DNA of 62,203 bases, the filler included, from an uncultured virus (IMG/VR IMGVR_UViG_2049941000_000192) (Duplodnaviria > Heunggongvirae > Uroviricota > Caudoviricetes). It is 8 parts of one record of this genome, joined end to end, with 100 filler letters (N's around TTAATTAATTAA, not from the genome) between each part and the next. Parts side by side here need not be neighbours in the genome. Positions count along the whole stretch, not along the records: positions 38,724 to 62,203 come from IMGVR_UViG_2049941000_000192; 7 more parts are not named here. One strand, 5' to 3'. This document shows, one piece after another, positions 32,679 through 58,605 of this stretch. The translations under genes and the position numbers were made by a program. Every line of letters starts with the position of its first letter. The first letter of the stretch is position 1. The notes under the pieces are model-generated. The model made no database searches. It was not told the origin of the DNA and saw only the letters and a program-made list of their open reading frames with translations.

Positions 32679-33434
32679 TTACTTCGTCTCCTTGCACTTA
32701 TTGTAAGAATCAAGTCTATCTAGATATTCGTTACGTTCTATTTGAACCATTTTCCCATTTTCGTTTTCTTTGTAAAACTTGTCGATCGGTATTACCTTTC
32801 CATCTGGACATTCGATTCTCAATACAGCGACGGTGTCAAAACATCCAGGCTTTGCATTTACATGATCGAATGTACGGTCGTATACTTTGTACGGCTTTGT
32901 GGACGGCATATACGGAAACTTAATAGGGAATAGCTTGTCAACCTCGTTTGATGATAGTCCTAAATGGTGGCCGTATTTTTCTTCATCGTCAATGCAGATT
33001 GCGTAGTCATTGTCAGTGTATTTAACGTTTCCGTCTTTATCTACATGCTTAAACACCGCAGAGCATCTGTTGTTTTGGAAAATCTTTTCGCCATCACAAG
33101 TTGCCCAGCCACATTCAATCCATTCGTCATCGGAATCCGTCAGAGGAGTGAGCGGCCTATGGTTCATAAGACGAATAAGTGCATTTTTAGTGAAGCCCCA
33201 AGAGCATCCTGAGTGCCCGTCTTTTAACATAGACTTGAAAGCTCGCAAAGCAGATGCGTAAATTTCTCCGCCATATGAAAAATCCTTTGGATTATATTTG
33301 CGGCCGTGTTCTTCAGCATCTTTTCGATCTGCCTCATGTTCACGCTTAATGGCTATGGCTATCTCGCGTTCAGCCCAAAATTCCATGACTGACTTCTTTC
33401 TAAAGAATCTCTTAAAGAATTTCATTGTGTTCAT
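32679..33434 (-). CDS. Conserved-looking phage hypothetical protein
   Basis: GHSGCSW, PLTPLT, FQNNRCSAVFK, PIKFPYMP segments; complete ORF. Confidence 0.6.
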   Translation of the reverse strand: MNTMKFFKRFFRKKSVMEFWAEREIAIAIKREHEADRKDAEEHGRKYNPKDFSYGGEIYASALRAFKSMLKDGHSGCSWGFTKNALIRLMNHRPLTPLTDSDDEWIECGWATCDGEKIFQNNRCSAVFKHVDKDGNVKYTDNDYAICIDDEEKYGHHLGLSSNEVDKLFPIKFPYMPSTKPYKVYDRTFDHVNAKPGCFDTVAVLRIECPDGKVIPIDKFYKENENGKMVQIERNEYLDRLDSYNKCKETK

Positions 33435-35671: not shown

Positions 35672-35817
35672 NNNNNNNNNNNNNNNNNNNNNNNNNNNNN
35701 NNNNNNNNNNNNNNNTTAATTAATTAANNNNNNNNNNNNNNNNNNNNNNNNNNNNNNNNNNNNNNNNNNNNCGATAGAGTTCGTATCGGTGGGCTATATA
35801 ATGAATAATAAAAAAAA

Positions 35818-35844: not shown

Positions 35845-36240
35845 TATATATAGTGGTTATTTTAAATATCAATTTTATCTTGCACTCATTTTAAATTTAC
35901 CTCATGTACTATTCCGGCACCTTCATTGTTATGCCAATGTTGATCGTGCTCTGCCTAGCATCGGTTATTCGTCCACTTTCTGAGCATATCGCGGAACTCA
36001 TTATAGCACTCCGGGCATAGNNNNNNNNNNNNNNNNNNNNNNNNNNNNNNNNNNNNNNNNNNNNTTAATTAATTAANNNNNNNNNNNNNNNNNNNNNNNN
36101 NNNNNNNNNNNNNNNNNNNNTGATAGAGTTCGTATCGGTGGGTTATATAATAAATAATAAAAACCCTGGATATTCTCCAGGGCTTTCTTATATCATATCA
36201 ATCTTATCTACCGGCCAAAGTTTAACGTGCNNNNNNNNNN

Positions 36241-38622: not shown

Positions 38623-39037
38623 TNNNNNNNNNNNNNNNNNNNNNNNNNNNNNNNNNNNNNNNNNNNNTTAATTAATTAANNNNNNNNNNNNNNNNNNNNN
38701 NNNNNNNNNNNNNNNNNNNNNNNAACTATGAACATGGTTGCGGTTACGGCGACGACCCACAGCGCCGCCTGCTTGATTGTGTCCTTCATTATGCCTCCCT
38801 TTCGAACGGCNNNNNNNNNNNNNNNNNNNNNNNNNNNNNNNNNNNNNNNNNNNNNNNNNNNNNNNNNNNNNNNNNNNNNNNNNNNNNNNNNNNNNNNNNN
38901 NNNNNNNNNNNNNNNNNNNNNNNNNNNNNNNNNNNNNNNNNNNNNNNNNNNNNNNNNNNNNNNNNNNNNNNNNNNNNNNNNNNNNNNNNNNNNNNNNNNN
39001 NNNNNNACATCCGTGCGTTGCCGTAAAGCCTATCTGC

Positions 39038-39802: not shown

Positions 39803-39962
39803 GCGTTTCTCCTTGTGTTAGGTGTTCTTGTTCAATCGTTTTANNNNNNNNNNCTGCTTCAGGTCGAACAGTGCCAGTGGTTGATTTGTCTTCGGAGGAA
39901 TCGGCATTGTCGTTTCATAAATAATACCTGCGGCAATTTGCTGGCTGGTACGNNNNNNNNNN

Positions 39963-40703
39963 TTGCTTCAGGTCGAACAATGCCAGCGGTTGATTTGTCT
40001 TTGGCGGAATAGGCATTGTCGTTTCATAAATAATACCTGCGGCAATTTGCTGGCTGGTACGATCGAATGCAAATGGTAAATCCTTAGGCCACCATTTGAG
40101 GAGTTCACGATACGCAAGAAGCGTGGTCTTTCCTGCAACACCTTTGTCCCAACCATACTTCCAGAAGATATGCATCATAGACGAAACGTCGTATTCACAA
40201 TAATCGTCAATCTCGCGTTTCATTTCATCGGTCAAATGTTCTTCCGGATCGTAAGGAAGTTCACGAATACGAAGACCTTCGTACATTTCCCATTGTTTCA
40301 ACGAATATCTAAGCAAACAGTTATTGAGAAGGTCAAAGTGTTTTGCGTTCCACGCACGTACCGCGCAGTGACGTTTTACGATCGGATTGTTGTTTGCGTC
40401 GTACGAAATGAGTGCTTGTGCATCGCTGAAGACATATTTTAGAGGAACGCGTTCAGAACGTTTCAAATCGCTCTTGATTTTTGCAAGTACCGGCAAGTCG
40501 AATCGCTTACCGTTAAACGTGATGATGTAGTCAGCTTCATCGATATACGATTCAATGACTGCCATTCGTTCACGAGTTACTCCAGCGCCGTCATCACCGA
40601 CGCGAATTGTCTTTGTGCACTCTTTAGTGTCTGAGTTATACATTTTACCGACAAAGACGAAGTGCTCTTTGTACGTTTCAATATCAAATCCAAGAATGTT
40701 CAT
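39963..40703 (-). CDS. DNA polymerase, N-terminal 3'-5' exonuclease domain (phage B; truncated by gap)
   Basis: ExoI FDIETY, ExoII TFNGKRFDLPVL, ExoIII YCEYDV. Confidence 0.85.
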
Positions 40704-41407
40704 TAAGCCTCCAAGAACTTCTTAACAGTGTCAAGTTCCCAATCGTAAAGATGAAGCGAATCGGCGAACCACACGATGTCGCACCGCTCAATCTTAATAC
40801 GGTGTGTCTTTTCGATCTCGGCCTTCATGTCCATCAGAACTTTGTGATGCCACATGAAATCATTGCGAAGACCATACCAAGCATCACACGAACGCATGTG
40901 TACGTCGTACACGAGACAATATGCACCCGCCTTGTAACGCACGTTTACGGACGTGTAGATTGTACAAATCATGTCGCTCTTTGCATGAATGTTGTCATTC
41001 CATTCCGAGTTGATCGATGGTCTGGAATAAATCATTACGCAATGCTTTGTAAAGAGGTCGTTCGTGATTGCCTCAAGAGCGTGTTTGTACTGCGATTTGT
41101 TTTCCGGAGAATACAGACACCATCCGTAGTTTGAGTTCACACGACCTGTATCTGATGCAATTCTACGCCAGATACTGTTCTTGGCGATTCTCGGGTTAGA
41201 GTTGATGTCGCAGTTCATGGATTGATACCACGCGAGTTCTGCTTTAACGTATTCTTCGTTTACGCACGTGAGAGGCTGTAAGCCATCAAAGATCGCTGCG
41301 AAACCAAGACGTTCGTGTTCACAACCATTATCGCTCTCATACTTCGAATGGATAAGATCACGAAGGATGTTTTTGTAAAAATCATCGTTTGTCATCTGTG
41401 CTACCAA
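40703..41407 (-). CDS. dCMP hydroxymethylase (T4 gp42-like, thymidylate synthase superfamily)
   Basis: NEEYVKAELAWY, VNSNYGW, MIYSRPS, DMICT (catalytic Cys), MRSCD..YGLRND, SLHLY match gp42 motifs. Confidence 0.88.
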   Translation of the reverse strand: MVAQMTNDDFYKNILRDLIHSKYESDNGCEHERLGFAAIFDGLQPLTCVNEEYVKAELAWYQSMNCDINSNPRIAKNSIWRRIASDTGRVNSNYGWCLYSPENKSQYKHALEAITNDLFTKHCVMIYSRPSINSEWNDNIHAKSDMICTIYTSVNVRYKAGAYCLVYDVHMRSCDAWYGLRNDFMWHHKVLMDMKAEIEKTHRIKIERCDIVWFADSLHLYDWELDTVKKFLEA

Positions 41408-41807
41408 AGCCTCCCTCGCGCTTCACGTACATACGTTCGATTGTCTTTACGTCTGTTGCCGGCTGAAGTTCGATTTGCACGACTCTTTCGCCGGCTTCTA
41501 TTACCACAGGTTCACTTGTGAAGTTGTACACAGGCACATGAACCATGCCGCGATAATCGCTGTCGATGATCGAAACCGGAATGATAAGACCTTTGCCGAG
41601 AGTAGAAGACCTCGGGTACATAACGACTTTGTTACCGCTTGCAATATCGAAATGCAAGTACGTCGGAATCTTTTTGTATGAGTGAGCTGCGACTATGGTA
41701 GTTTTGGGGATAGCGACGTCGGCACATGCTGCAAATTCCGTCATATACTTTGGCGGAATTCCAGTTGTACCATCATCGTCATGGAGTTGATACACAGTTA
41801 ACGACAT
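41382..41807 (-). CDS. dut: Trimeric dUTPase-family pyrophosphatase
   Basis: PRSS, IIDSDYRG, ERVVQ, REGGFGST motifs. Confidence 0.9.
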   Translation of the reverse strand: MSLTVYQLHDDDGTTGIPPKYMTEFAACADVAIPKTTIVAAHSYKKIPTYLHFDIASGNKVVMYPRSSTLGKGLIIPVSIIDSDYRGMVHVPVYNFTSEPVVIEAGERVVQIELQPATDVKTIERMYVKREGGFGSTDDKR

Positions 41808-41844
41808 ATTTTACCAATTGATACGAAACAAACATTTGTTTCTA

Positions 41845-41879
41845 ATTATATATCTTAAGTTTGATTCGATTTTTTCCAA
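41845..41879 (-). promoter_or_regulatory. Phage B promoter motif upstream of the dut-hydroxymethylase-polymerase operon
   Basis: Minus strand TTGGAA-N18-AGATATATAAT. Confidence 0.65.
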
Positions 41880-42048
41880 ATTTATCTTAAGAAAAAATGA
41901 AATATATATCTTTTGTGGATATTTAAAATTTAATAAATAAAATCAAATAAACGCGTTTTGAGACAGTTTTCGAAAAGGCCTTATAAGGGTATTCAGAAAA
42001 TAAAAAAGTGACCGAGAGGCCACTTTCTGTTTGAAGAATTGAGTATTT

Positions 42049-43713
42049 TTAAGTCAAGTCAAATCGAATTCCGTAGATTTGGAAACGAATGTTATCCGCT
42101 GTACCAAATTCCAGTAGAACTGAGTTGCCAGATCCACAATTACGCCACAACATGGTGTAGTCATTCTTGCCTGGAGCGCCGAAGTTACGGTACAAGTACG
42201 GACCGAAGTTGAGCCCGCGGTCAAACGATACGTGCAAGTACATTCTGTACCGAATATTATTCGTATCGAAGTAAATACCTGTATCGCAGATGACTTCAAC
42301 TTCACGGAGAATCTTTCGGCCGGTGAACTGCATGAATGCTCCACGCACAGACCGCAGGATTGGATCACCGTCAGCATATGTACGGGCATTCTCAACAGCT
42401 TCAAGGATCACGCCATAACGCGAAATGCCGAGGAAGTGACCATCGCGGTTCATAATTGTCCAGTCAATAGCTTTCTTTTTATCTGGACGAACGTAATGCC
42501 ACCAGAAACCCTGCTTTGTCAGAGCATATCCATTGCGGCACGATTCGTCTGTATAAACGACAATCATCGACTGATCTCGAATAGTCAACGGACGAATCCA
42601 GAACGGATGGGCTCCGAGACGTTGCTCAATTTCGTCATTGCTTACGTGCTGGATTTGGCCATTCATGCCGATCGCAGCAATAAAGTCGTTATGCAAAGCA
42701 CCTTTGCAGATCAAGTACAGCGTATCATTAACGATAACAGGTGAACGGCCACCGTAATAAATCGTATTCTGACTATTGTGCTGAATCGGATTGTCAACGT
42801 TACCGGTTGCGCTCCACACTTCGATGGATGTATCATTCAAGAAGTACAACTGGCCCGCGAATGTTACTGCATCAATAAGGTTTGCCGAAGATGCAGTTGA
42901 CGCATACCAAGCCGATATGAGATCGTTCACCAAGGTTGGTTCGCCATTATCGCCAATAGTGTATTGCCACGGAGATCGCGGATAAAGCGCATTGCCGTCA
43001 CCGCTCCACGACGGAGTTGTCCAACGCGATGGATCGATGTTCGTTAACCACACAGTATTCTTACTCGACTGAACAAGAACCAAGCGATTGTCAAACCACG
43101 CAATACTCGAGACATGAATAAGTTTATTCATATCGTAGAATAACGGGTTTACCGCAGGATAATATCCATAACGAGTTGCAGTTGCCGTGTTCGGCATGTT
43201 CACATCATAGAAGAACTGCTTGACGGCTCTGAGGCCCTCTTCAGTTAAAGCATCGGGACTTTCGAAAAGCGGAAGTTGCCACGGCACAAATGCATATGCA
43301 GCATACGAGCGCACTCCGGCAGGAATACGTTCAGGATCCGGCATGTTCGTTGTATTCCAATACCAAACGTTCGTCCCATCGCACATGTACACTTGCGAAG
43401 GTTTCGTAGACGATTCACAAAATGTCACACGTTCAGGAGTCGTAGCGAACTGCATCATGCTCGTTGTATTGAGTTCGTACGAATCACCAACTTCAGTATA
43501 ACGTACAAGCCACAAACGAGTTGTCGTAGCAATGTACATGTTATTAAGACTGTCGACGAATGTCTCCAGCACGTATTCATCAGTGAATGTAACCTTGGCC
43601 CGTTCACCAAGACGATCGATAATGGACTGGCCCATCGGAATCATGTTGTGATAATCCGATGCAGGCCGTCCATCATGGAACGCTTGAATGCCGTTAAAAA
43701 CCGAAACGTCCAT
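42049..43713 (-). CDS. P22 gp10-like tail hub protein (phage B)
   Basis: HNMIPMG, LYFLNDTSIEVW, HVSNDEIEQRL, LHVSFDRGLNFG...WRNCG. Confidence 0.8.
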   Translation of the reverse strand: MDVSVFNGIQAFHDGRPASDYHNMIPMGQSIIDRLGERAKVTFTDEYVLETFVDSLNNMYIATTTRLWLVRYTEVGDSYELNTTSMMQFATTPERVTFCESSTKPSQVYMCDGTNVWYWNTTNMPDPERIPAGVRSYAAYAFVPWQLPLFESPDALTEEGLRAVKQFFYDVNMPNTATATRYGYYPAVNPLFYDMNKLIHVSSIAWFDNRLVLVQSSKNTVWLTNIDPSRWTTPSWSGDGNALYPRSPWQYTIGDNGEPTLVNDLISAWYASTASSANLIDAVTFAGQLYFLNDTSIEVWSATGNVDNPIQHNSQNTIYYGGRSPVIVNDTLYLICKGALHNDFIAAIGMNGQIQHVSNDEIEQRLGAHPFWIRPLTIRDQSMIVVYTDESCRNGYALTKQGFWWHYVRPDKKKAIDWTIMNRDGHFLGISRYGVILEAVENARTYADGDPILRSVRGAFMQFTGRKILREVEVICDTGIYFDTNNIRYRMYLHVSFDRGLNFGPYLYRNFGAPGKNDYTMLWRNCGSGNSVLLEFGTADNIRFQIYGIRFDLT

Positions 43714-44590
43714 ACAACCTCCTGTCAGTGCGAAGTTTGTTCTGCACACGTTCAGAGACGTTCGCCTCATGCAACGGCTGAGGTTTGTTCTTCTTCAGCA
43801 AATTATACGACACGGCTTGTTGCTTTTCCATTGCAGGAAGAGAACTCACGCCGTAGATGATGGCCAGCGAAACTGCCAAACAGTCAATTAAGTACCGACG
43901 GAACTTTTCTGGCGCTTTGATTTCACCAGCAAAATCGTGTGTGGCATTCACAATTTGAAGAGGTACAGGCAAAATCAAAACTTTCGGAACGTTGGTTCCC
44001 TTTATAAGAACGATTAACTGGTCATCATATTCTTCGGTTGTATATACGCCAGGAATCGTATCGAGAACCGTACGTTCGAACTCGTCGCGATAAAGGTATC
44101 CATGTTCAAAGCGCGATGTACTTTCAATAACTGATTCAACTCGCATAGGCGGAAAATCGATATTGTAGCCAGGCACAATGTTACAGTTAACGTTATCGCT
44201 GCCAGCAACGAGCTTCATGTCAGTTGTCCACATTGCAAGATACATCGGTTCACCGAGATCCGTTTCAGGCCACGTTGTAATTCCGAGCCTTGCGAGTTCA
44301 TCAGACCAGTGTGAATCGAGTTCAGTAGAATTGTACTGCGAATAACCAAGCAACTTCCAACCATCACGAGGCTTGAACGGCTTGAGTACAATTCTGCCAC
44401 CAACAGGTTGATATACGCGGCTCGTAACCGTGATGTCGAGAGTGCGGTCACAGTTAATACTGGGCAAAATTTCAGAGGCGAGAACATTTCGTCCTGCCTC
44501 TTGTACATCGTCCGGAAGTTCATCACGATTAAACGACGAAACAATACCGGCCTTAAAAGCCGCGGACTGGATTAACTCTACCACGTCCAT
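43694..44590 (-). CDS. P22 gp4-like head-tail adaptor (phage B)
   Basis: ELIQSAAFKAGIV N-terminus and APEKFRRYLIDCLAVSLA; GGAGG RBS. Confidence 0.65.
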   Translation of the reverse strand: MDVVELIQSAAFKAGIVSSFNRDELPDDVQEAGRNVLASEILPSINCDRTLDITVTSRVYQPVGGRIVLKPFKPRDGWKLLGYSQYNSTELDSHWSDELARLGITTWPETDLGEPMYLAMWTTDMKLVAGSDNVNCNIVPGYNIDFPPMRVESVIESTSRFEHGYLYRDEFERTVLDTIPGVYTTEEYDDQLIVLIKGTNVPKVLILPVPLQIVNATHDFAGEIKAPEKFRRYLIDCLAVSLAIIYGVSSLPAMEKQQAVSYNLLKKNKPQPLHEANVSERVQNKLRTDRRLYGRFGF

Positions 44591-45977
44591 ATGCACCTCC
44601 ATATGTAGGTCGATTCAGATTAATGTTGTTTTGAACAGCTGCAGTTACGTTCTGCAAATGTCTATTACGGTTATGTAAGAATGTAATACCTTGGACTACG
44701 GAGTCAACGATGTCGTCGTGACGTCCATGCGGGAACTGCGTGAACTGCGATTGAATTTCGCCCCACACGAATCCACGCACTGTAAACTTCACGTTCATAC
44801 TATCAAATAAGTATTTCACCAAGAGAGCACGTTCGATCTTATCCTTGTTCGGAGTGGTTTCCATAATACCATTCATTTCTCGGCGCAAGATCTGCATTGC
44901 CGCAACACCGTTTGCCTTTGCTTCAAACAATACAGGTGTCTCTTGCCCATACCGTTTACGAAGTTCACGAATCTTTTGGCACAGCACCGTAACGTCTGCG
45001 TGGAAATTTTGTACTTCCATAACATAATAGTCCACACCGTTCGTGCCAATAACAGAGACCGCGTTGTAGTCATTATTAATATCGCCTTTCATTGCAGCAT
45101 CGACACTAATTACAGTCTTAAGCGACTTTAGTGTAGGACGATCAGCCGACAGCACGAGCTTATGGCGTTCGAACAAGTTACCAATGTCGTCAAGCGGTGT
45201 TTGCAAGAACTGCGCGTTTAATGTGAACGGGTCGTTCTTGTACGTGTTAATCTCTTCAAGAGGTAAACGTTCAGGACAAAGAGGAGTACCATCACTGTTA
45301 ATCGCAGGAAAGTTTGCATGCACCCACTTTTCATTCGAGCCTCCAGCCAACAAGAATCCGGTCAAGTCATTCGACGCAATTCTTTGTTGAATGACGATAA
45401 TAGGTACGTCCGGATTATTAATACGGTTACGGATTGTACTCATGAATACGCCATTGCGCTTGCTGAGTACGGTCGGCGATGTTCTATCGGACGGCTTATT
45501 CGGGTCATCAAGAATAAGCATCGTGCTACAACCAGAACCAGTAATGTTGTTACCAGATCCACGTGCAATAATCATACCAGTTGCATTGTTCGTCCACTCA
45601 GTTTTACCGTCGTTCTTAGAACGCATCAAAAGCGCGCCAATGTCAAAATGCTTGGCGAGCCACACGAGGATGTCTTGAATTTCGGAGTTCTTACGAGCGA
45701 CCAATGCCTTGTCGTACGAAACATACATGATAGTACTTGCTGGATTCCGCAAGAACTGCCATGCGATAAAGTGCTTTATGATTTCGGTTTTGCCAATACG
45801 AGGAGGCGCATTGATTATCAGACGACGAATCTTGTCGCTATCAAGCAACAGGTCGATCAAATCATTATGAAACTTATAGAACCCGAACTTTTCTTTGTAT
45901 ATATGCTGAAAACAATATCCGAGGAAGAATCGGAAATTTTCTTTGCATAGCTTAAGTTCGAGTTCTAATTGAGTCAT
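44553..45977 (-). CDS. terL: Terminase large subunit (phage B)
   Basis: Walker A INAPPRIGKT, Walker B LILDDP, IVIQQR, nuclease ISVDAA and HDDIVDS. Confidence 0.92.
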   Translation of the reverse strand: MTQLELELKLCKENFRFFLGYCFQHIYKEKFGFYKFHNDLIDLLLDSDKIRRLIINAPPRIGKTEIIKHFIAWQFLRNPASTIMYVSYDKALVARKNSEIQDILVWLAKHFDIGALLMRSKNDGKTEWTNNATGMIIARGSGNNITGSGCSTMLILDDPNKPSDRTSPTVLSKRNGVFMSTIRNRINNPDVPIIVIQQRIASNDLTGFLLAGGSNEKWVHANFPAINSDGTPLCPERLPLEEINTYKNDPFTLNAQFLQTPLDDIGNLFERHKLVLSADRPTLKSLKTVISVDAAMKGDINNDYNAVSVIGTNGVDYYVMEVQNFHADVTVLCQKIRELRKRYGQETPVLFEAKANGVAAMQILRREMNGIMETTPNKDKIERALLVKYLFDSMNVKFTVRGFVWGEIQSQFTQFPHGRHDDIVDSVVQGITFLHNRNRHLQNVTAAVQNNINLNRPTYGGAYGRGRVNPVRGF

Positions 45978-46984
45978 TATTCGACTACCGTAAAGAATGT
46001 ACCGGGTTGAGGTCTGTAAATTGTTAATACTTTCTTAGTGGCTAGTGACGTTACACTTGTCAACCAACGCACCGTGATTGTTTCAGCTGTGTCATTTATG
46101 ATTTGAAGCTTGTTAAAGTCATCGGCATTCAATGTTGCGATGTGCGGTGCCGATGACAAGAACGTACCGGCGATGTACACGGTCGGTCCGACCACATCGA
46201 GATTACCGCCATGCAGCTGTTCCGCCGCGACAATTGTATATCCGGTTTGTTCACTGGCAGATGTATTCAACATCTTGAAAACGATTGTTTCATCTGACTT
46301 GAACATAATGCCAAACTGGCCTGGCGCAATTATAATCGGATTGGACAAATCGTCAATGGCCATCTTGACGCTGTATCTATCATCTTTGTTGTAGATAACA
46401 ATTGTTTGGCCATCGCGCAAAGGACCACCGACCACAAATTTTGCTTCGTCAACTGCAAGCGACTTGAACGTAATGATATGCGTCCATTCGTTTGTGCCAA
46501 CACTTTCCCAGCTATCGACAGAACCACCAGTGACAATGACTTCACTTTCTGCCCAAACGTTGTTAAGATTTGCTTCAGATCGCAGTAAGTAATCGGGCAA
46601 ATGAATTTCAGTGTCGGAAAGATTTCCGCTCTGTTCACTGCCTTGACCATTGAAGAAATACAACTTCTTCACTTTGGTATTTGTGCCGGTATCACCAGCA
46701 TGCAAAATCCACTGAATAGGCCAGCTTGTACCACCGTCAAGCGATACTTCGATGATTGCATCTTCATCAACAGCAAGACAATTCACCTTCTGCTGGCCAC
46801 CAGAGCGCATAATATATCCGTTCTGGTCGGTGCTCACTTCGAGGCCAATGTCATCGTACTGTGTCTCATCTTCGACGTTTGTCATATCGAAGAACTTAAT
46901 ACGAGTGGTTTTACCTTCGTCAGAAAACGCGCGAAGTTTCGCATTACGGTACATCGTACGATGCGGATCAAACACTTGAATCAT
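45977..46984 (-). CDS. Tailspike/fibre-like protein with head-binding-type N-terminus (phage B)
   Basis: VSTDQNGYI segment resembles P22 head-binding domain; beta-rich C-terminus. Confidence 0.5.
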   Translation of the reverse strand: MIQVFDPHRTMYRNAKLRAFSDEGKTTRIKFFDMTNVEDETQYDDIGLEVSTDQNGYIMRSGGQQKVNCLAVDEDAIIEVSLDGGTSWPIQWILHAGDTGTNTKVKKLYFFNGQGSEQSGNLSDTEIHLPDYLLRSEANLNNVWAESEVIVTGGSVDSWESVGTNEWTHIITFKSLAVDEAKFVVGGPLRDGQTIVIYNKDDRYSVKMAIDDLSNPIIIAPGQFGIMFKSDETIVFKMLNTSASEQTGYTIVAAEQLHGGNLDVVGPTVYIAGTFLSSAPHIATLNADDFNKLQIINDTAETITVRWLTSVTSLATKKVLTIYRPQPGTFFTVVE

Positions 46985-47394
46985 TCTGCATACTCCTCAG
47001 GATTATTTTGCATGTCGCGAAGTTTACTAATTGGAATCAAAGACACATCAGTGTCGAGCAAATCCCACGGATCACCAGTTTCTGGCCAGTACTTCTTTGC
47101 ACCAGACGGAAGCTTTGAGCGAACAAATTGGTTGGCATCATTTACCGCTGAACCTACATCAGGTATAAACCATAGCGGATTGGCAGAAACCATAGACGCC
47201 GTGATTGCCGCACCTGTAGGAGTCGCGATAAAATCAAGTGCCTGCTCAGGAATAGACGGCTGATACTCGAACTCTTCCGGGTCGAGCGCCATTATCATAT
47301 CCCACTGTTCAGACGGTGTAGCACGAAGATCGGCCTTGTTCTTGCCGACTGAACTACCACCGATAAGAAGATCGTCCCAAGTCTTATCACTCAT
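46981..47394 (-). CDS. Hypothetical virion-module protein
   Basis: MSDKTWDD start with GAGG RBS; overlapping neighbours. Confidence 0.5.
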   Translation of the reverse strand: MSDKTWDDLLIGGSSVGKNKADLRATPSEQWDMIMALDPEEFEYQPSIPEQALDFIATPTGAAITASMVSANPLWFIPDVGSAVNDANQFVRSKLPSGAKKYWPETGDPWDLLDTDVSLIPISKLRDMQNNPEEYAE

Positions 47395-48769
47395 TGGTCT
47401 TCCTCCCAGTCGGCAAAATATATTTACCAAACAGTTCGGTAGCAACAGGCAAAGCGAAACCACCAGCACGGCCTAAGCGGCGTCCCCACTTTTGGCCGAA
47501 CGTTTTCGGTTTACCGGCATTTTCGTATTCTTTCTGCGAAACGATCTCGCCAGTTCCAGTTGCACGACCACGATTCTGCGGCTTCTTCTTAGAGTTCGGA
47601 AGTTTTGCGCGGCGTTCATGCCAATCGACGAGAGCACCTTTCCACTTCTCATTAAGAACCGGATCGGACATTTCGGCATCAGTTGCCACAATATCAGCAA
47701 CAGCCGGATGTTCACCACGAAGAGAATGAATCTGCTTCACGTAATCGCGATGATCCATTGCAGGTGTTTCTTTTGTGGGAAACATCATCATGCCAAGATT
47801 ACGTTTTGGATGATACCATGCTTCAGAAAGGGCTTTCTGTACGCCAGCCACGTCGACCGACTGCGGATTAATTCCCTTGGCTTGAAGCCACTTAATAGTA
47901 ACATCTTCATCAATGAGGTTCTTGCCTTTACGAGAAAGTACCTTAGAACCTTGAGCAGCCATAACAGGAGGTTGGCGTTTCAAAGTCATTTGCGGAGATG
48001 GCAACTTTGCGTCAGTCGGAAAATCCATAAGCGGAGCATCACGCCATTCTTGCAATGTGTACGGAGCTTCACCGGCTTTGAAACGATCCATGATGTTTTG
48101 TCTCAGTGTAGGATCGATCTGGCCCTTCTTGCCAAGGCGCATCTTACGGCGAATGATTTCATCAAGTTCACGTTGTACTTGTCCGGCATCAGAGAAGTGC
48201 CTAACAAGAGCCGTACCGCCAGCCGCTGCCGCAGCCGTCAAAAGAGCATTCGGAGCCGATTCATTGTACAAAGCGTCGTCACGTGCAATACCAACAATAT
48301 TGTTCGCAAGATCGGTACCAGCTGAAATCATCGCAGCACCTGGAATAACCTTCTTAGACAAAGGTTTTGCAGCAGCAATAACCGGGCCGGCATAATGTCC
48401 CATCGCGCCAGTTACGTCTTGAGCAACATCCGCAGATGCGCTACGCTGATTGGCACGAATCGGATCACCAGCTTGACCACTCATCGGGTTCACCATTTGA
48501 TACTGGCTACGCGGAGCAAACGCGGCACCAATAACTCGACCAGCTGCAGAACGCGTGGGTTCTTTACCGATTACGGCATGTTCAGCTTCGGCCGGAGTGT
48601 TATATGTATACGAAGATTTGAATAACGGATGAGTATTCGGAATAACAACAAGACGCTTAGACTTCTTGTCAATACCAAAACGTACAGTTCCAGCTGTAGC
48701 CTCTGCGGCCCAGTCTTTCTCTGCACTAAGGATTCCTGCTTCGTCAACTGTATAAGCATTCGGTTTCAT
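47387..48769 (-). CDS. Ejection-like virion protein (phage B)
   Basis: Ala/Gly-rich hydrophobic segments; TAATG coupling; position after the pilot-like gene. Confidence 0.5.
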   Translation of the reverse strand: MKPNAYTVDEAGILSAEKDWAAEATAGTVRFGIDKKSKRLVVIPNTHPLFKSSYTYNTPAEAEHAVIGKEPTRSAAGRVIGAAFAPRSQYQMVNPMSGQAGDPIRANQRSASADVAQDVTGAMGHYAGPVIAAAKPLSKKVIPGAAMISAGTDLANNIVGIARDDALYNESAPNALLTAAAAAGGTALVRHFSDAGQVQRELDEIIRRKMRLGKKGQIDPTLRQNIMDRFKAGEAPYTLQEWRDAPLMDFPTDAKLPSPQMTLKRQPPVMAAQGSKVLSRKGKNLIDEDVTIKWLQAKGINPQSVDVAGVQKALSEAWYHPKRNLGMMMFPTKETPAMDHRDYVKQIHSLRGEHPAVADIVATDAEMSDPVLNEKWKGALVDWHERRAKLPNSKKKPQNRGRATGTGEIVSQKEYENAGKPKTFGQKWGRRLGRAGGFALPVATELFGKYILPTGRKTNE

Positions 48770-50430
48770 TATCCAGCAAGCTCCACGCTATTAAGGTCAA
48801 TTGTAATTCCGGTACCATTGCCTTGAGGCAAACCATTCTGTTCTTGTTGTTCAATATTCTCAGACGGATTTCCCTTCGGATTTTCGTCGCGAAGATATTC
48901 AACAATAAGATTTTTATAGTTTGTAGGTTTGAGCAACGGACTCGGAGAAACTTGGCGACTGAGATCATCAAAGTCAATAACTCTATCTTCAAGAACTTTA
49001 GCGCGTTCAGGACGATGCGCACGTTCCGCAAAGTCGTTATACTTACGAGCAGCAAGATCGTGCAGTTCTTTAGCCTGCATGTAAACATACGACGGATCGA
49101 CGTCAGCCGCAAGCATCATGTTCTGCATGTACATATCGTGGGCATTCTTACCAGCGGCAAGTGCTTCACTCAAACCGACAGCAAGTTCACGTTCCTGCGG
49201 ACTCAACGACGGCAAGATGTCTTCGACATTCTTGATCATCATCGCAGCAGCACCACTGATGTTCTTCTTACCATTCTGAGCAAGAGCCAACTTAGCGGAT
49301 TCTGCAGCACGATTCAAACGGCCGATAATGTCCTGGCTCCAGCCCTTCTGACGCCCATAGTTCATGACACTTTCAAGGAATTCACGGTAGCCAGCGATCT
49401 CCTGCTTAACCAATTCCATAGAACTTTCAGGCAGCGACAAGATCTGGATACGTTGCTTTTCAGCATCGGCCATCGATTTAGAGTCACCGCCAAGTTCTGC
49501 AGCGAGAGCCTGAGAGACCTTATCGAGATAGTTCTTAATGAATTGCTGTGTGTGCGGTTCATTCCAAGAACCATTCTTCCACCAATTATAGATGTTGTCC
49601 ATGGCATCTTCGGTGTACGAAAGCATCTGTTGATACTGCGTCGGAGATGTACGCATGAGGTCAGCACGCTTGCCTTCAACAGTCGGAACAGGCTCAAGAT
49701 CGACAGACGAACCTTCGCCAAATACAGATTCGTAGCGCTGTTTGAACGCATCACGCCATTGTGCAGCGGACTCAGCAGTACCACCAAATTCGTCGAAATT
49801 GCCTTGAACAATCTTGTTGATGTGGTCTTTCCACATGTTAATCATGTTCGCACGCTGACGTTCAGTCGCAACAGGCGTCATCATGCCATTAGCTTTTTGC
49901 TGAGTCGCGGCTTGTTTAAGCATCTGAGCAAGCCATGCATTCTCACGATCAACGCCATTCCAAACGGTTTCGTTCCACTTAGAACCAGGCGGCATGAACC
50001 TATGTTCGAGTGCCCAATGCCATCGCATGCCGTTTCTCGCGGCTTCAAGTTCATCGTCAGACGGTCTCAGCATACGAGAAAAGAAGTTATCGCCGCTCTT
50101 ACCAGGCACAACTTTCGTACCAGGTTTTGCTTCGACATAGCGAATTCCGTCATTTTCCACGGGCTTTTCTTCAGCAGGTTTGTCTTCTTTGAACGGTCCA
50201 TCGTTACGAGTTGTCCAGCCAGTTGCCAAACCCTTAGGCACTTTGCCAGTCTGAATAGAGCCAAAACCGCGTCCTTGAGGCGCTAGTGTAGGCAATAACA
50301 ACGGACGATAAGTGCTCGCCTCGTCACGATTCTTCTGGCGATTTTTCTTAGGAAGACCAGCGTAACGCGGAATTTCATTCGGAATTTCGATCGCCACGTA
50401 GGTATCATCTGGTTCAAATCCGGTGGCCAT
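48769..50430 (-). CDS. Ejection-like virion protein (phage B)
   Basis: Long helical ORF, TAATG-coupled on both sides. Confidence 0.5.
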   Translation of the reverse strand: MATGFEPDDTYVAIEIPNEIPRYAGLPKKNRQKNRDEASTYRPLLLPTLAPQGRGFGSIQTGKVPKGLATGWTTRNDGPFKEDKPAEEKPVENDGIRYVEAKPGTKVVPGKSGDNFFSRMLRPSDDELEAARNGMRWHWALEHRFMPPGSKWNETVWNGVDRENAWLAQMLKQAATQQKANGMMTPVATERQRANMINMWKDHINKIVQGNFDEFGGTAESAAQWRDAFKQRYESVFGEGSSVDLEPVPTVEGKRADLMRTSPTQYQQMLSYTEDAMDNIYNWWKNGSWNEPHTQQFIKNYLDKVSQALAAELGGDSKSMADAEKQRIQILSLPESSMELVKQEIAGYREFLESVMNYGRQKGWSQDIIGRLNRAAESAKLALAQNGKKNISGAAAMMIKNVEDILPSLSPQERELAVGLSEALAAGKNAHDMYMQNMMLAADVDPSYVYMQAKELHDLAARKYNDFAERAHRPERAKVLEDRVIDFDDLSRQVSPSPLLKPTNYKNLIVEYLRDENPKGNPSENIEQQEQNGLPQGNGTGITIDLNSVELAG

Positions 50431-51544
50431 TAGAGTGTCCCCCATGCTTGATAGGTAGTTTCTCCGAGTTCAGGCATACCAGCAAACTTGCGTTTCTTGG
50501 ACTCCGCCTTACCTGCAGCCTGTGCATCTTCACGCGAAATAATCGGCGCATCCCAAGCTTCAGGCACCAGAACTTTGTTACCAACTTCAACAGGAAGACC
50601 GACCACCATGTTGCTTCCATAGTCAAGAAGGTCCTGATCCCAGCCGACAGGTTCTTCGCGAGTCATGCTCATATCGAGATTTGGATCATAGCCAGCCATT
50701 TGCAATTCGGGATTTTGGATTTCGTCAACTGTTTCAGCCGGCTTATCTTTACCACTGAAAAGACTCGCAATCCAATTACGAGTATCAGGAGAAAGAGACT
50801 GCCACATGTTATAAAGACCAATGATCTGTTTTACGGGCTTCGGCCCTTCAGTAGGNNNNNNNNNNTTGTTGATACTGCGTCGGTGATGTACGCATGAGGT
50901 CTGCGCGCTTGCCTTCAACAGTCGGGACAGGTTCAAGATCGACAGACGAACCTTCGCCAAATACCGATTCATAGCGCTGTTTGAAAGCATCACGCCATTG
51001 TGCGGCGGACTCAGCAGTGCCACCATATTCGTCAAAATTGCCTTGAATAATCTTATTGATGTGGTCTTTCCACATGTTAATCATGTTCGCACGCTGACGT
51101 TCAGTNNNNNNNNNNGCCTGCGCAAGACTTCCATACGGGCTTCCTGCGTATCTTTGTTTTCCTGCTGCCATTGCTTGAACATGATTTCGAAACGTTTGAT
51201 ACGTTCCTGAGATGCAACCCATTCGGCCTGGCGTTCCATACGCTGTGTGGCCATGATCTGGAGTTGCGTAATACGATTCTGCTGCGCGGCGATCGTTTGC
51301 TGCTGTTGCTGTAACTGTTGTTTGAGTTTGACAACGAGCGGACTCGCNNNNNNNNNNAATTTTGGATTTCGTCAACTGTTTCAGCCGGCCTGTCTTTACC
51401 ACGGAAGAAACTCGCAATCCAATTACGAGTATCAGGAGAAAGAGACTGCCACATATTATAAAGACCGATAATCTGTTTTACGGGCTTCGGTCCTTCAGTA
51501 GGAGTATAACTTATATGAGGACCACTTGCACTAAACCTTGTCAT
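50430..51544 (-). CDS. Small virion-module protein, interrupted in the scaffold by inserted allele fragments
   Basis: N-terminus MTRFSASGPH at 51544; PTEGPKPVKQIIG present on both sides of the gaps. Confidence 0.5.
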
Positions 51545-51554
51545 ATGTTACTCC

Positions 51555-52169
51555 TTAAAAGAGGTTACCAAACCACGATTGATCTTGCCCACTCACCTGA
51601 CCACCGGCTTGAGCAATATCCATATCCTTAGTATACTGAGTGCCAGCCATATCCGCCTGCAACTGTCCCCACTGGAGCGTCGGCATGAGATTCGCTTCGA
51701 GGTTTGCACCATAAATACCTTGCTTGTTCTTCGCGTCAGCCAGTGCCTGCTGAAGCGCATTATTCCACATACTAGTCGATTGCTCGCCGACGTTACGGAC
51801 AACGGCGTTATTTGCGGCAGAACTCTGAAGAGACGAACCAGCACCTGCAAGAGCTTGATCGGCGGCACCTGCAAGCGCGTTACCGTACATCGGATTTACA
51901 AAGCTCTGTACATTTTCAGGACTAGCCGCATCTTCAGTGCCAAGCATACGCGTGCTGTAGTCAGCAAGCACGTAGTCCATGTTACGGTTCTTCATTGCAC
52001 CACCGTACATATCGAGTACGGGCTGCATGTTATTCTTCAAAGAGGTCTGGGCGGTATTTGCGCCAGCCTTCATCGTGTTAAAGCCACGTTCGCCAGCCTT
52101 AGTATCAGTAAGACCAATTGCATCAGTAGCACCTTTGACGACACTACCCCACCAATTACCGATTCCCAT
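51555..52169 (-). CDS. DNA ejection/pilot protein (P22 gp7-like; phage B)
   Basis: MGIGNWWGS..., FVNPM...AGSSLQSSAANNAV parallels phage A YLDPN...GGMTGGAAARAL. Confidence 0.6.
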   Translation of the reverse strand: MGIGNWWGSVVKGATDAIGLTDTKAGERGFNTMKAGANTAQTSLKNNMQPVLDMYGGAMKNRNMDYVLADYSTRMLGTEDAASPENVQSFVNPMYGNALAGAADQALAGAGSSLQSSAANNAVVRNVGEQSTSMWNNALQQALADAKNKQGIYGANLEANLMPTLQWGQLQADMAGTQYTKDMDIAQAGGQVSGQDQSWFGNLF

Positions 52170-52171
52170 GA

Positions 52172-54025
52172 TTAAAACCTCCCAGGCTGTCCCACGACAG
52201 GGGCTCTCGGGATTGAGACGGGAGCTGTAAAGCCTGCTGTATTTGCTGTTGCTGTTGGTTGCGTCCCTGAATTAACTTGCGGCCCAACATTGGGAGTAAC
52301 GTTTCCCACATTGCTAAATTCTCCTTGTTGATACTGACCAATCGTATCGGCAGTTGCGTCAGTCATTTGTGCCTGTGTTTCGGGTTCGGCAAGCACAGGA
52401 TTGTCAATAGCCTGAATAGCCTGGAGCATAGCCATTGCACCATAAGTATCGCCCTGGTCAAGCAGCCTGCGCAAGACTTCCATACGAGCTTCCTGCGTAT
52501 CTTTGTTTTCCTGTTGCCACTGCTTGAACATGAGCTCGAAACGTTTGATACGTTCCTGAGACGCAACCCATTCGGCCTGACGTTCCATACGCTGTGTAGC
52601 CATGATTTGGAGTTGCGTAATACGATTCTGTTGTGCGGCGATCGTCTGCTGCTGTTGCTGTAACTGTTGTTTGAGTTTGACAACGAGCGGACTCGCGAAC
52701 GGATCTTGCATCAAGATCTGGCCGACGCGCTGCTTCATCTTTTCCGGAAGCGGGCTGTTCGCCAAGATTTCGAAAATGAAACCCTGAGCATTGAGGCCAC
52801 TGTCCTTCGCGAGATTGTAGATACTTACAATATTCTGTTCGAGCTTTGTGGTCTGCGCCGCTTCGATCAGGCCACCTTGTACAATCACGATGTTGTTATT
52901 TCCAGTGAGCATCGAGTTGATGATGCGGTAACATTCTGACACAGAGTTCGCCATGTTCGAAAGATACGTATTCGAAATAGCATCACGAACTTCGTTACGT
53001 GCTAGAACCTCTTCGCGAGTCACAGCTTCAGAAGAAGACTGAACGACAGGTCCAAGCATGTCGGCAATGACATTCTTCCACGTTTCAAAAGCGGTAACTA
53101 GGAATTGGTTGTCGTGCGCAATAGGTATAATCGGGTCTTTAATCGGTTCGCCATTTGCATCTGTGTGATCGATTTCCTTTACGCCAGCATTGCGCCAAGA
53201 GGGCTTTGTATTAGAAATAGCATCACGTGCAGCGATATAGTTGTCGTCATCGGACATAGCAGTTCGCGTTTGAATCTTAGTAGCCGCGAGAGCCATGGCC
53301 TTGATAACACCAGCCATCTGATAATAGAGACCACGATAATGATAACGCTTGTCAGTGAGTTCAAACTTCTCGCCGTAGAAACGAACAACCGGAATACGGT
53401 CTACGTTAGGTATCGTAGTGTTAACTACATCTGGAACACCTTCTTCGTAGATGTCAAGGTTGACTACACCACTCTTGATATAGTAGTAATACGTTTTGAC
53501 CTTTTCGGTCGTTGCATCAAATTCAACATAACCAGACGGAAAATCCGATATAAAATCATCATCGCGAGTACGAGGCAAAACTTCAAAGACAACAAGTTCC
53601 GTTGCATCTTTCAGTGTCGGATCGTTACCGTTGAACATAATAGAACGGGCGTCGATACTATTAAAAATAGGTTTACCGTCCTGAAGGCCAAAGCCCAGGA
53701 ACGAATAACCATCATCCAATGTCATTTTGTATTGATCGACGAATTGGCTGTTGAGTCGCATGCCAATCACGGTTTCATTCAGCGTGTCGTCTGCCGGACG
53801 GAAAGGTTCGGCTGCAAGCTTACTTGCCTGAACTGTAATAAACGTCTTGACGTAATTAACAACAACGAGTGGGTCATTCGAAATGAGTGCCCACTCGCTA
53901 TAGTCAGTATCGCCAAGACTGCCAGCAGCAGCGGCGCGAGAAATGTCAAGTGCTTTCTTGTCCGTCTCACGATAAGAGACTTTAGACTTAAAGCGCTCAA
54001 GAATTGTGTTCAGGGATTCCGACAT
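52172..54025 (-). CDS. Portal protein, P22-like (phage B)
   Basis: 617 aa; VVNYVK, RIPVVRFYGE...YRGL, Q-rich C-terminal coiled coil. Confidence 0.8.
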   Translation of the reverse strand: MSESLNTILERFKSKVSYRETDKKALDISRAAAAGSLGDTDYSEWALISNDPLVVVNYVKTFITVQASKLAAEPFRPADDTLNETVIGMRLNSQFVDQYKMTLDDGYSFLGFGLQDGKPIFNSIDARSIMFNGNDPTLKDATELVVFEVLPRTRDDDFISDFPSGYVEFDATTEKVKTYYYYIKSGVVNLDIYEEGVPDVVNTTIPNVDRIPVVRFYGEKFELTDKRYHYRGLYYQMAGVIKAMALAATKIQTRTAMSDDDNYIAARDAISNTKPSWRNAGVKEIDHTDANGEPIKDPIIPIAHDNQFLVTAFETWKNVIADMLGPVVQSSSEAVTREEVLARNEVRDAISNTYLSNMANSVSECYRIINSMLTGNNNIVIVQGGLIEAAQTTKLEQNIVSIYNLAKDSGLNAQGFIFEILANSPLPEKMKQRVGQILMQDPFASPLVVKLKQQLQQQQQTIAAQQNRITQLQIMATQRMERQAEWVASQERIKRFELMFKQWQQENKDTQEARMEVLRRLLDQGDTYGAMAMLQAIQAIDNPVLAEPETQAQMTDATADTIGQYQQGEFSNVGNVTPNVGPQVNSGTQPTATANTAGFTAPVSIPRAPVVGQPGRF

Positions 54026-54305
54026 ACTGGGCCAATAAAGATTGTTCAGTCGCTGCCGCTTCTTCGGCGGTCAACTCCTTTGGTGCGGTTGAAATGTCTA
54101 ACTTATCGATTAAGTCAATCGCACGGACCTTTAAAGTATCCGGTGTATATTTGTCGGTTGCAATCGAATATAAAGTTTCACGAACTCGCTTAGTGTCTAG
54201 ACCGTTGCGTGCGAGCGATGCACATGCCGCGACACGTGCCTGGCATTTTCCAGCATCACAATACGCAATTAGTCTAAGTTCGTCTGCAAGTTCTTCTGCT
54301 ATCAT
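53997..54305 (-). CDS. Small helical protein, possible terminase small subunit
   Basis: LYSIATD...LKVRAIDLIDK resembles TerS; first gene of the portal operon. Confidence 0.45.
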   Translation of the reverse strand: MIAEELADELRLIAYCDAGKCQARVAACASLARNGLDTKRVRETLYSIATDKYTPDTLKVRAIDLIDKLDISTAPKELTAEEAAATEQSLLAQYVGIPEHNS

Positions 54306-54342
54306 ATTGATATATCTTATTAAGACAAAGTTATTTTTCCAA
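54303..54342 (-). promoter_or_regulatory. Phage B promoter motif abutting ATG
   Basis: TTGGAAAA-N5-TTTGTC-N6-AGATATATCAATATG, matching 9588-9627. Confidence 0.7.
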
Positions 54343-54631
54343 AACTTTTATATGGTTTGTTTTCACCTTGATTTAAGAAGACTTCGATATATTGATTTGG
54401 CACAATGACAAAACGAATTTGCCACAATTCCAAAATCCACATATCGTTTGTTTTGTAGCATTCGAATATGCCCTGAAAAGCATCGCGCAGTCTATCGAAT
54501 GCGTACTTCCCTAAGAGTCTCATTGCCGTACCTCGTACTGTTACAAAAATACGGCACAGGTTTACCAGCCTGTACCGTTCTTGATGACATATGGTCGTAA
54601 GAGATATTGTGTGTTGTGGTCGTCATCAATA

Positions 54632-54696
54632 GTGGGTCTGCTGGACTCGAACCAGCGATGTGTAATGGACTACGAAACCACATCACCTTTGACCCA
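54632..54696 (-). ncRNA. tRNA-like element lacking a D-arm
   Basis: Acceptor-like TGGGTC/GACCCA stem and perfect T-arm GCTGG-TTCGAGT-CCAGC; only 33 nt between them; no encoded CCA. Confidence 0.5.
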
Positions 54697-54735
54697 TGGT
54701 GATAGACTTTACGTGGTCTATCAGCACGTTAGACT

Positions 54736-55341: not shown

Positions 55342-55395
55342 AATTACTCCTTGATTTGGTGGCTGTTTGTGATGTTCATAGTTAGTTGAACTAAC

Positions 55396-55432
55396 TATTT
55401 ATATATCCAAAGTTTCGAATGAAATTATCCAA
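55396..55432 (-). promoter_or_regulatory. Phage B promoter motif variant
   Basis: TTGGAT-N18-GGATATATAAAT. Confidence 0.55.
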
Positions 55433-56345: not shown

Positions 56346-56508
56346 TGTTACTCCTGTTTATCTCCTTTAATGATAAAATCCGAGCCGAATAGCAAGTACC
56401 ATACGGCCCAGATAATCATGATGTGAAAGAAGCCGCTGAAGCCTTCGAACGTGGCATACAAAGATGCCATCAGTAGAAAGCATATTGTAACCACGATCGT
56501 ATACTTCA

Positions 56509-58180: not shown

Positions 58181-58222
58181 TTTACACTCCGGGTTTACTG
58201 TTTGAAGCGGTAATAGATGGTA

Positions 58223-58396: not shown

Positions 58397-58562
58397 ATTG
58401 TAGTCCTGTTTTGTGTTTGAGTTTTCGAAAATTAATCTTTGAAAACGGTCTTATGGGCCCTAAATTCTTACTAAAAATCATTTTTAAAAATTTTTTTCTC
58501 TTTTCGAGTAAGTAAAAGGCCCCTTAAGATAATTTTTAAAGATGAATTTTCTAAATACGTGC

Positions 58563-58598: not shown

Positions 58599-58605
58599 AT
58601 TGTGA

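Follow-up and report, generated by a model that had tools for sequence, protein, structure and literature searches.

The question raised by this locus is how a gene related to the deoxycytidylate (dCMP) hydroxymethylase of phage T4, gp42, came to lie beside the DNA polymerase gene of a small phage, and what its product would do there. The gene is carried by DNA of the uncultured virus IMGVR_UViG_2049941000_000192, and it was studied in a stretch of 62,203 bases (hereafter the window), which is a pseudomolecule of several scaffolds and not a single genome. The explanation that we consider probable is that a two-gene cassette, encoding a dUTPase and a gp42-type dCMP hydroxymethylase, was acquired horizontally by a bovine-gut phage lineage of approximately 33-39 kb, that the product is 5-hydroxymethyl-dCMP, and that the phage DNA would carry 5-hydroxymethylcytosine or a derivative of it. 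What can be shown directly is the homology and predicted fold of the enzyme, its catalytic and specificity residues, the order and conservation of the genes, and their occurrence in independent samples.

The locus consists of three open reading frames (ORFs) on the minus strand: one of 141 amino acids (aa) at 41382-41807, one of 234 aa at 40703-41407, and a third that begins at 40703 and is truncated by a gap of N at 39953-39962. The first is a trimeric dUTPase-fold gene. The second, the T4 gp42-type dCMP hydroxymethylase homolog, is open from a TTG at 41407 and probably starts at the ATG at 41395, giving 230 aa (40703-41395), because a 99%-identical database protein, P0001, has 230 aa and because the TTG lies only about 2 nucleotides (nt) after a GGAGG. 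Counted from this ATG, the hydroxymethylase gene shares 14 nt with the dUTPase gene. The third is the DNA polymerase gene, of which the N-terminal 247 aa, the exonuclease part, are present (39963-40703). The last A of the hydroxymethylase stop codon TAA is the first base of the polymerase ATG (TAATG), and a GGAGG lies 5 nt upstream of this ATG, so that the hydroxymethylase gene is predicted to be translationally coupled to the polymerase gene. The cassette sits between a head-closure gene and the DNA polymerase gene. An earlier note on this DNA had described three overlapping or coupled genes on the gap-free stretch 39963-50855; the ORFs, the overlaps and the TAATG were confirmed, and this stretch contains no N. 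Its further statements, that the first gene has a dUTPase fold, that the middle gene carries gp42-type motifs and an Asp at the RND position like T4 D179, that the third gene is a DNA polymerase, that a large terminase subunit (TerL) gene lies on the same stretch and that the phage is small, agree with the results given below, as does the outcome of the phylogenetic placement that it had proposed as a check.

The arrangement is not an assembly accident, because a twin contig and further bovine-gut contigs carry the same order. The twin, IMGVR_UViG_3300028886_001233 (13.7 kb), has the same arrangement at 98% identity, with 7 nt and 1 aa differences in the dUTPase, 12 nt and 1 aa in the hydroxymethylase and 33 nt and 0 aa in the polymerase fragment, and in the spacer at 41808-42048 none of the 241 nt differ. 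The small number of amino acid differences relative to nucleotide differences points to purifying selection. The segment 39964-43800 is also covered, at approximately 96% identity, by contigs of 6,039 and 13,863 bp that come from two further bovine-gut studies. Sequencing runs that hold this stretch belong to 12 studies of bovine-gut metagenomes, and the window itself may derive from one of these. Megablast of 39963-50855 against 50,697 phage records gave no match.

A phmmer search of the Protein Data Bank (PDB) with the middle protein returned three forms of T4 dCMP hydroxymethylase as the sole matches (E 4.5e-27 to 4.2e-25), and in this alignment the catalytic Cys and the Asp of the RND motif were aligned with those of the T4 enzyme. 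All four motifs named in the earlier note (NSNYGW, MIYSRPS, DMICT and YGLRND) are present in the translation. An AlphaFold2 (AF2) model built from 32 homologs had a predicted local distance difference test score (pLDDT) of 96.1 and a predicted template-modelling score (pTM) of 0.92; Foldseek placed T4 dCMP hydroxymethylase first (1b49 and 6a9a, TM 0.79-0.82, E 5e-20), followed by the CMP hydroxymethylase MilA and then by thymidylate synthases. Moreover, 12 positions, numbered as in Escherichia coli ThyA (E58, W80, Y94, L143, C146, H147, R166, S167, D169, N177, H207 and Y209), were compared with the reference enzymes T4 gp42, RB69 gp48, E. coli ThyA, RB69 td, the Xp12 homolog, SPO1 gp29 and phiW-14 gp230. 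The window enzyme reads EWYDCTRSDDHY at these positions and is identical to T4 gp42 at 12 of 12. As in T4 gp42 (PDB 1b49, 1b5e and 6a9a), a thymidylate-synthase fold is predicted with a catalytic Cys, that of DMICT, aligned with T4 C148 (E. coli C146); Asp residues stand at the positions of T4 D145 (E. coli L143), D171 (E. coli D169) and D179, where E. coli ThyA has N177; and the Arg/Ser phosphate site and the His/Tyr deoxyribose site are retained. Cys144, Asp179, Arg168, Ser169, His215 and Tyr217 are invariant in all 32 family members. By sequence, predicted fold, diagnostic residues and tree position, the middle gene is thus assigned to the gp42 type.

The product of such an enzyme can be predicted from three of these positions. 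According to PMC13326640 (NAR 2026), Asp in place of E. coli N177 goes with dCMP as substrate, Asp or Glu in place of L143 goes with a hydroxymethyl and not a methyl product, and Asn in place of D169 marks the 5-hydroxy-dCMP synthases. At L143/D169/N177 the window enzyme reads D/D/D like T4 gp42, and the references read L/D/N (ThyA), N/D/D (Xp12), D/D/N (SPO1 gp29) and E/N/D (RB69 gp48). Among 126 aligned rows, the N177 position is Asp in 123, of which 120 are D/D/D and the others include RB69 gp48 and Xp12, and Asn in two ThyA rows and SPO1 gp29. In a tree of these 126 rows, a quick LG+G4 search with long reference branches and moderate support, the window enzyme fell into a 118-row clade with T4 gp42 (Shimodaira-Hasegawa-like approximate likelihood-ratio test, SH-aLRT, 98), which leaves out ThyA, Xp12, RB69 gp48, SPO1 and phiW-14, two annotated dUMP hydroxymethylases included. 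Within this clade, it belongs to a 48-row subclade that is sister to the 70-row subclade of T4. Synthesis of 5-hydroxymethyl-dCMP by the window enzyme is therefore likely on these grounds.

It is quite improbable that the enzyme converts dCMP to another product, either 5-methyl-dCMP as in Xp12 or 5-hydroxy-dCMP as in RB69 and DLP3. Three activities do occur within one superfamily with a common Asp at N177 (PMC13326640), and the hydroxymethyl product is predicted from two positions only; however, the L143 position is Asp like T4 and not the Asn of Xp12, the D169 position keeps Asp and not the Asn of RB69 gp48, and the tree groups the window enzyme with T4 gp42, apart from Xp12 and RB69 gp48. 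RB69 gp48 was identified in 2026 as a 5-hydroxy-dCMP synthase that depends on flavin (PMC13326640). Together with DLP3 gp80 and HY126 AfhB (PMC13326640; PDB 9iqu), it resembles the window enzyme in superfamily, in dCMP as the (here predicted) substrate and in the Asp at N177; these three enzymes differ in using flavin and in having Asn at D169, whereas the window enzyme retains Asp there and branches apart from RB69 gp48.

The adjoining dUTPase raises a second alternative. Its ORF matched Pfam PF00692 (E 8.5e-20; score 71.3 bits, gathering cut-off 22) and PHROG 135 dUTPase (E 4.1e-25), and the 27 PDB matches shown for it (E 1e-12 to 6e-6) are all named dUTPase or dUTP pyrophosphatase(-like), bar one uncharacterised protein. 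The hydroxymethylase homolog might then act on dUMP supplied by this neighbor, as a thymidylate synthase or a dUMP hydroxymethylase. This we hold to be very improbable. The gene is paired and overlapping with the dUTPase gene, related 57-63 kb phages have ThyX in the same slot after the dUTPase in 9 of 18 loci, and PHROG 160, which matches the protein (E 4.4e-21), and many GenBank records call such genes 'thymidylate synthase'. Yet the N177 position is Asp and not Asn as in the ThyA rows and SPO1 gp29, Asp177 is associated with modified-cytosine contigs (PMC8670742), and the window enzyme lies outside both the ThyA and the SPO1/phiW-14 branches.

The surroundings of related dUTPases also bear on the origin of the pair. 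The same overlapping arrangement, dUTPase then hydroxymethylase, occurs in unrelated 57-61 kb phage contigs with a family-A polymerase. A scan with three hydroxymethylase-linked dUTPases found 18 loci, and a gp42-like gene directly follows the dUTPase in 7 of them, including the twin of the window and two loci with identical ORFs (L162 and L163). ThyX follows in 9, often with a family-2 glycosyltransferase, and the remaining two (L153 and L155) hold no gp42-like gene. Either ThyX or a gp42-like gene thus occupies the position behind this dUTPase type, and this pattern suggests that the pair probably moved together and entered the small phage as a unit. The dUTPase-fold partner probably acts as an ordinary dUTPase rather than a dCTPase, because its close relatives stand before ThyX, an enzyme that uses dUMP. 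A two-residue deletion at the 'LGN' of E. coli Dut is common to the three hydroxymethylase-linked dUTPase-like proteins; the idea of a dCTPase drawn from this loop was dropped, because relatives preceding ThyX have the same loop form. The TerL of the window did not match two 58-kb phages with a gp42-like gene, which are therefore a different lineage. In the ThyX-bearing group (L149-L158 and L164, IMG/VR contigs of approximately 57-63 kb), the dUTPase type is followed by ThyX matching PF02511 at E 1e-25 to 1e-30, and in at least three loci also by a family-2 glycosyltransferase. One 58-kb phage with a gp42-like gene, G001, encodes a MazG-type dATP/dGTP diphosphohydrolase N-terminal domain (L082:17519-17869, minus strand; PF18909, E 3.8e-33) a few genes from its dUTPase/gp42-like pair, and has a 2,446-aa ORF after a portal-like gene.

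The cassette is an accessory insert. The gp42-like gene is absent from 10 of 10 complete relatives of this phage (32.7-39.5 kb), and hmmsearch confirmed its absence from the six relatives that were fetched, with the window and its twin as positive controls; the dUTPase is likewise absent from all six.

These data lead to the following predicted mechanism, in which the product, its use by the polymerase and the degree to which C is replaced are all inferred. The Cys of DMICT in the 230-aa enzyme would attack C6 of dCMP, a methylene would be taken from 5,10-methylene-tetrahydrofolate, and the acidic residue standing for Leu143 of ThyA would allow water to be added, giving 5-hydroxymethyl-dCMP. 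The product would then be phosphorylated by some kinase and incorporated by the phage polymerase, and the resulting DNA would contain 5-hydroxymethylcytosine or a derivative. The dUTPase would most likely serve to keep dUTP out of DNA. Modified cytosine in the phage DNA is accordingly probable as a prediction from sequence.

Several findings, in addition to the quality of the tree, weigh against this explanation. Pfam PF00303 gave no match to the window protein even at E 10; P0001, 99% identical to it, bears a precomputed PF00303 label, and T4 gp42 scores 58 bits against this family. Searches of the window with PHROGs and Pfam found no dNMP kinase for the role of T4 gp1, no dCTPase, with only the trimeric dUTPase-fold protein recovered, and no DNA glycosyltransferase or other enzyme decorating 5-hydroxymethylcytosine. 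A P-loop kinase present in some relatives, described below, is absent from the whole window in six frames, including the syntenic site. The partner looks like an ordinary dUTPase, and no step supplying dCMP was identified. Furthermore, the cassette scaffold accounts for only about 22 kb of a genome expected to measure 33-39 kb, and the window is a patchwork, so that absence of the pathway genes from the phage is not proven, because part of the genome is missing. T4 needs both gp1 and gp56. Pfam and PHROGs likewise revealed no kinase or glycosyltransferase in a 58-kb phage that is 98% complete and carries this pair, although it has a MazG-type dATP/dGTP diphosphohydrolase-like gene. The proposed pathway is plausible and incomplete: of the earlier proposal that 5-hydroxymethyl-C replaces C in this phage, the identity of the dCMP hydroxymethylase stands, and full replacement is a prediction, with no kinase, dCTPase or glycosyltransferase found in the window.

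A third alternative follows from the same findings. 5-Hydroxymethyl-dCMP might be made while the phage DNA is only partly substituted or not substituted, for lack of a phage kinase or dCTP-removing enzyme, in which case the role of the cassette would lie in manipulating nucleotide pools, or it would have been acquired recently and integrated poorly. We judge this unlikely. In its favor, the window yielded neither a kinase nor a dCTPase nor a glycosyltransferase, the gene is a recent accessory missing from 10 of 10 complete relatives, and thymidylate-synthase homologs expressed alone gave only trace incorporation (PMC13326640). On the other side stand the strong purifying selection relative to the twin contig, the persistence of the cassette at approximately 96% identity over several bovine-gut studies, the tight coupling to the polymerase gene, and the nearly complete (98%) 58-kb phage, which has the pair but also no recognisable kinase and so suggests that kinases of these hosts can be enough. 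Incorporation into phage DNA is the reading that we prefer.

The site of insertion was then compared among relatives. The Hc3-like head-closure gene and the polymerase gene are adjacent in 6 of 6 fetched relatives. Just 131-211 bp separate them in G005 and G007, and approximately 745-775 bp in G003, G004, G006 and G010, each with a single ORF of 178-184 aa inside. This ORF encodes a protein with a predicted minimal thymidylate-synthase fold, from a family of 176-189 aa (L137:6846-7382, minus strand; L134:18999-19553, minus; L139:775-1323, plus; L144:18496-19044, minus). Sequence searches of Pfam, PHROGs and the PDB gave no match to it, and hhalign against the gp42-like family profile reached a probability of 0.15%; its 43 database homologs are all unannotated. 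Its AF2 model had a pLDDT of 93.1, and Foldseek placed the phage HY126 dCMP hydroxylase 9iqu at the top (E 1.3e-7), followed by many ThyA structures and MilA. In a MAFFT alignment, the protein retains the Glu, the Cys, the Arg-Ser-x-Asp, an Asp at N177 and the His-x-Tyr. Its tie to the superfamily is thus through predicted structure and motif-level alignment solely, and it has no counterpart in the window in any frame. The same four relatives also encode a P-loop NMP-kinase-like protein of 158-161 aa (L138:5762-6235, plus strand, with homologs in G003, G004 and G010), which gave weak cytidylate/adenylate kinase P-loop matches. The two proteins co-occur exactly, both being present in 4 of the 6 fetched relatives and neither in the other 2.

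Because 4 of 6 relatives hold a thymidylate-synthase-fold protein between the Hc3-like and polymerase genes, this site looks like a swap slot. We therefore suggest, tentatively, that the junction is a swap slot for thymidylate-synthase-fold enzymes, that the protein of approximately 180 aa may be a new smallest branch making a different modified cytosine nucleotide, and that the lineage of the window swapped in the dUTPase and gp42-type pair from unrelated 57-63 kb phages. If so, close relatives in one habitat would wear different DNA chemistries. What is new in the present study is the recognition of the gene as a lineage-specific insert in an apparent swap slot, of its dUTPase partner as probably conventional, and of the undescribed minimal thymidylate-synthase-fold protein and kinase of the relatives at the same place.

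Relatives of the hydroxymethylase are widespread. They were found in 846 cultured phage records, all below 60% identity; these are mostly T-even-like, and 69 are Microbacterium phages. In IMG/VR, relatives are encoded by at least 586 stretches, whose contigs measure between a few kb and 261 kb, and a scan of 1.84 billion cluster representatives gave 470 at E <=0.001 and 16 at E <=1e-30. Enzymes of the gp42 type are therefore not confined to large T-even myoviruses. The view that such a pathway is unexpected in this genome type has accordingly become dated: the surprise is weakened by published metagenomic work (MetaGPA, PMC8670742), by cultured small phages, the 41-kb Microbacterium siphoviruses, which have the same signature beside a glycosyltransferase and a kinase, and by the IMG/VR stretches. 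Searches on podovirus dCMP hydroxymethylases and rumen-phage hydroxymethylcytosine, limited to an open-access collection, found no report of this lineage.

Compared with T4, the window phage has its hydroxymethylase gene near a DNA polymerase gene, as T4 does. It differs in that the enzyme is just 28-31% identical to gp42 and belongs to the sister subclade. The phage measures approximately 33-39 kb, its polymerase is PolB-like but divergent, and it lacks a T4-like core; the window showed no counterpart of the gp1 kinase, the gp56 dCTPase or the glucosyltransferase, and a trimeric dUTPase precedes the hydroxymethylase. A further parallel is given by the MetaGPA contigs (PMC8670742; eLife 2021), where Asp177 was enriched on modified-cytosine contigs and Asp177 homologs were statistically linked to cytosine modification; the window, too, holds an environmental phage contig with a thymidylate-synthase homolog bearing Asp177. 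The carbamoyltransferase, HisE-like pyrophosphohydrolase and deaminases that co-occurred there (PMC8670742) were not seen here. Among cultured phages, gp50 of Microbacterium phage Juicer (MZ622175.1), annotated as 'thymidylate synthase', also reads D/D/D at L143/D169/N177 and belongs to a 41-kb tailed phage; homologs of this kind are 28-29% identical to the window enzyme. Juicer differs from the window phage in being a siphovirus of an actinobacterium, and in having a glycosyltransferase (gp47) and a thymidylate kinase (gp46) two to four genes from gp50, neither of which the window shows. The Juicer segment L147 (MZ622175.1, 32875-38411) holds gp46, gp47 and gp50, and judged by its gene content the gp46-gp50 region of this cultured phage resembles a cluster for cytosine hypermodification. 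To our knowledge, there is no report on the DNA chemistry of Juicer, although no search aimed at it was made.

The regulation of the cassette is less clear-cut. An AT-rich intergenic region of 241 nt (41808-42048, minus strand), a putative promoter region, lies upstream of the dUTPase gene. It contains CTTAAGATA twice (41891-41883 and 41859-41851) and, by eye, a perfect TATAAT at 41850-41845 with no usable -35. The earlier note had one promoter driving the three genes, and this is weakly founded: a sigma-70 scan of 41808-42048 called no minus-strand promoter, and the TATAAT lacks a -35. A strong hairpin resembling an intrinsic terminator (42003-42028, minus strand), with an 11-pair stem that includes 4 GC pairs and is followed by a T run, lies just past the stop of the 573-aa ORF, at 42028-42003, and would end the upstream head-closure gene. 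It is plausible from these features that the cassette is a separate transcription unit. In the RNA-library run X20, six short contigs fell on the three cassette genes, covering parts of 39964-41801 and none of 42011-43800; they cannot demonstrate transcription or a transcription unit, since the library may contain DNA and missing cover proves nothing.

The polymerase is complete in the twin contig, where it has 625 aa (L001:10705-12582). It matched PHROG 1252 DNA polymerase (E 3.3e-20 for the fragment and E 1.4e-48 for the full protein) and gave weak Pfam matches to PolB and the PolB exonuclease. Directly upstream of the cassette lies the 573-aa Hc3-like gene (42049-43770, minus strand), which matched PHROG 578 'head closure Hc3' (E 4.1e-18), had no Pfam match and had no tblastn match in the 50,697 phage records; homologs 33-53% identical occur in all six fetched relatives, each adjoining the polymerase side. 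The TerL gene (44553-45977, minus strand, 474 aa) matched PHROG 38 (E 2.8e-79) and Pfam Terminase_6C; its product is 56-83% identical in the six fetched relatives, and the best relative among cultured phages has 29% identity. In IMG/VR, relatives sharing TerL and the polymerase are contigs of 32.7-39.5 kb, several with direct terminal repeats, and all 10 that were queried are rated 100% complete. The gene order is kept in the six fetched relatives (among others RecE-like exonuclease, 617-aa protein, TerL, Hc3-like protein, polymerase, primase), and most proteins of the phage are without family assignment. The names 'P22-like gp10' and 'gp4' given in the earlier note found little footing, as the 573-aa protein matches only PHROG 578 and the 302-aa 'gp4' just a PHROG of unknown function. 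The phage is small, and 'P22-like' is a remote resemblance at best.

The composition of the window affects how its other genes are to be read. The scaffolds are joined in seven places by spacers of the form N44-TTAATTAATTAA-N44, where TTAATTAATTAA is a six-frame stop spacer (1339-1438, 5103-5202, 6106-6205, 13483-13582, 35672-35771, 36021-36120 and 38624-38723), and ten-N runs are gaps within scaffolds. The pieces vary in GC content between 0.35 and 0.69, further Hc3-like fragments lie at 5204-6106 and 17270-17668, and the window mixes pieces from several related phages. The cassette scaffold begins after the spacer at 38624-38723, and its longest gap-free pieces are 39963-50855 and 51358-62082, each of approximately 0.46 GC. 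Short pieces beside the gaps duplicate neighboring genes at lower identity: 50866-51347 contains second copies of portions of the 558-aa and 617-aa genes, and 39854-39952 (minus strand) repeats polymerase residues of approximately 215-247, with tblastn of a relative's polymerase matching 40703-39963 (query 1-247) and again 39952-39854 (query 215-247). The pieces between ten-N gaps at 50430-51544 and 39854-39952 echo the 558-aa, 617-aa and polymerase genes. Such short pieces near gaps are strain variants put in by the assembler and not genuine duplications.

Other genes were noted elsewhere in the window. At its start, an unrelated piece carries a DNA methyltransferase fragment (303-698, plus strand; PHROG 498, E 1.8e-26). 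A 250-aa ORF at 32679-33431 (minus strand) has a Tad3 domain, an inhibitor of Type I Thoeris (PF25185, E 1.3e-27), with a second match to PHROG 24386 (E 5e-47). The piece that carries it has a GC content of 0.42 and adjoins pieces matching the primase of this phage family. Six consecutive small ORFs of 61-120 aa at 59413-60775 (minus strand) lack counterparts in all six fetched relatives, match no family, and are possibly lineage-specific early genes.

In conclusion, if the proposed explanation is true, a common phage lineage of approximately 33-39 kb in the cattle gut would have hydroxymethylated cytosine with a far smaller gene set than that of T4, which would raise the question of which host enzymes supply the remaining steps. 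Modified DNA resists many restriction and CRISPR systems, and it can bias virome library preparation and sequencing, a bias that bears on the reading of rumen viromes. Moreover, the lineage of the window and its close relatives, some without such a gene and others with the minimal thymidylate-synthase-fold protein and kinase at the site, would offer a natural comparison for how phages exchange DNA-modification modules.

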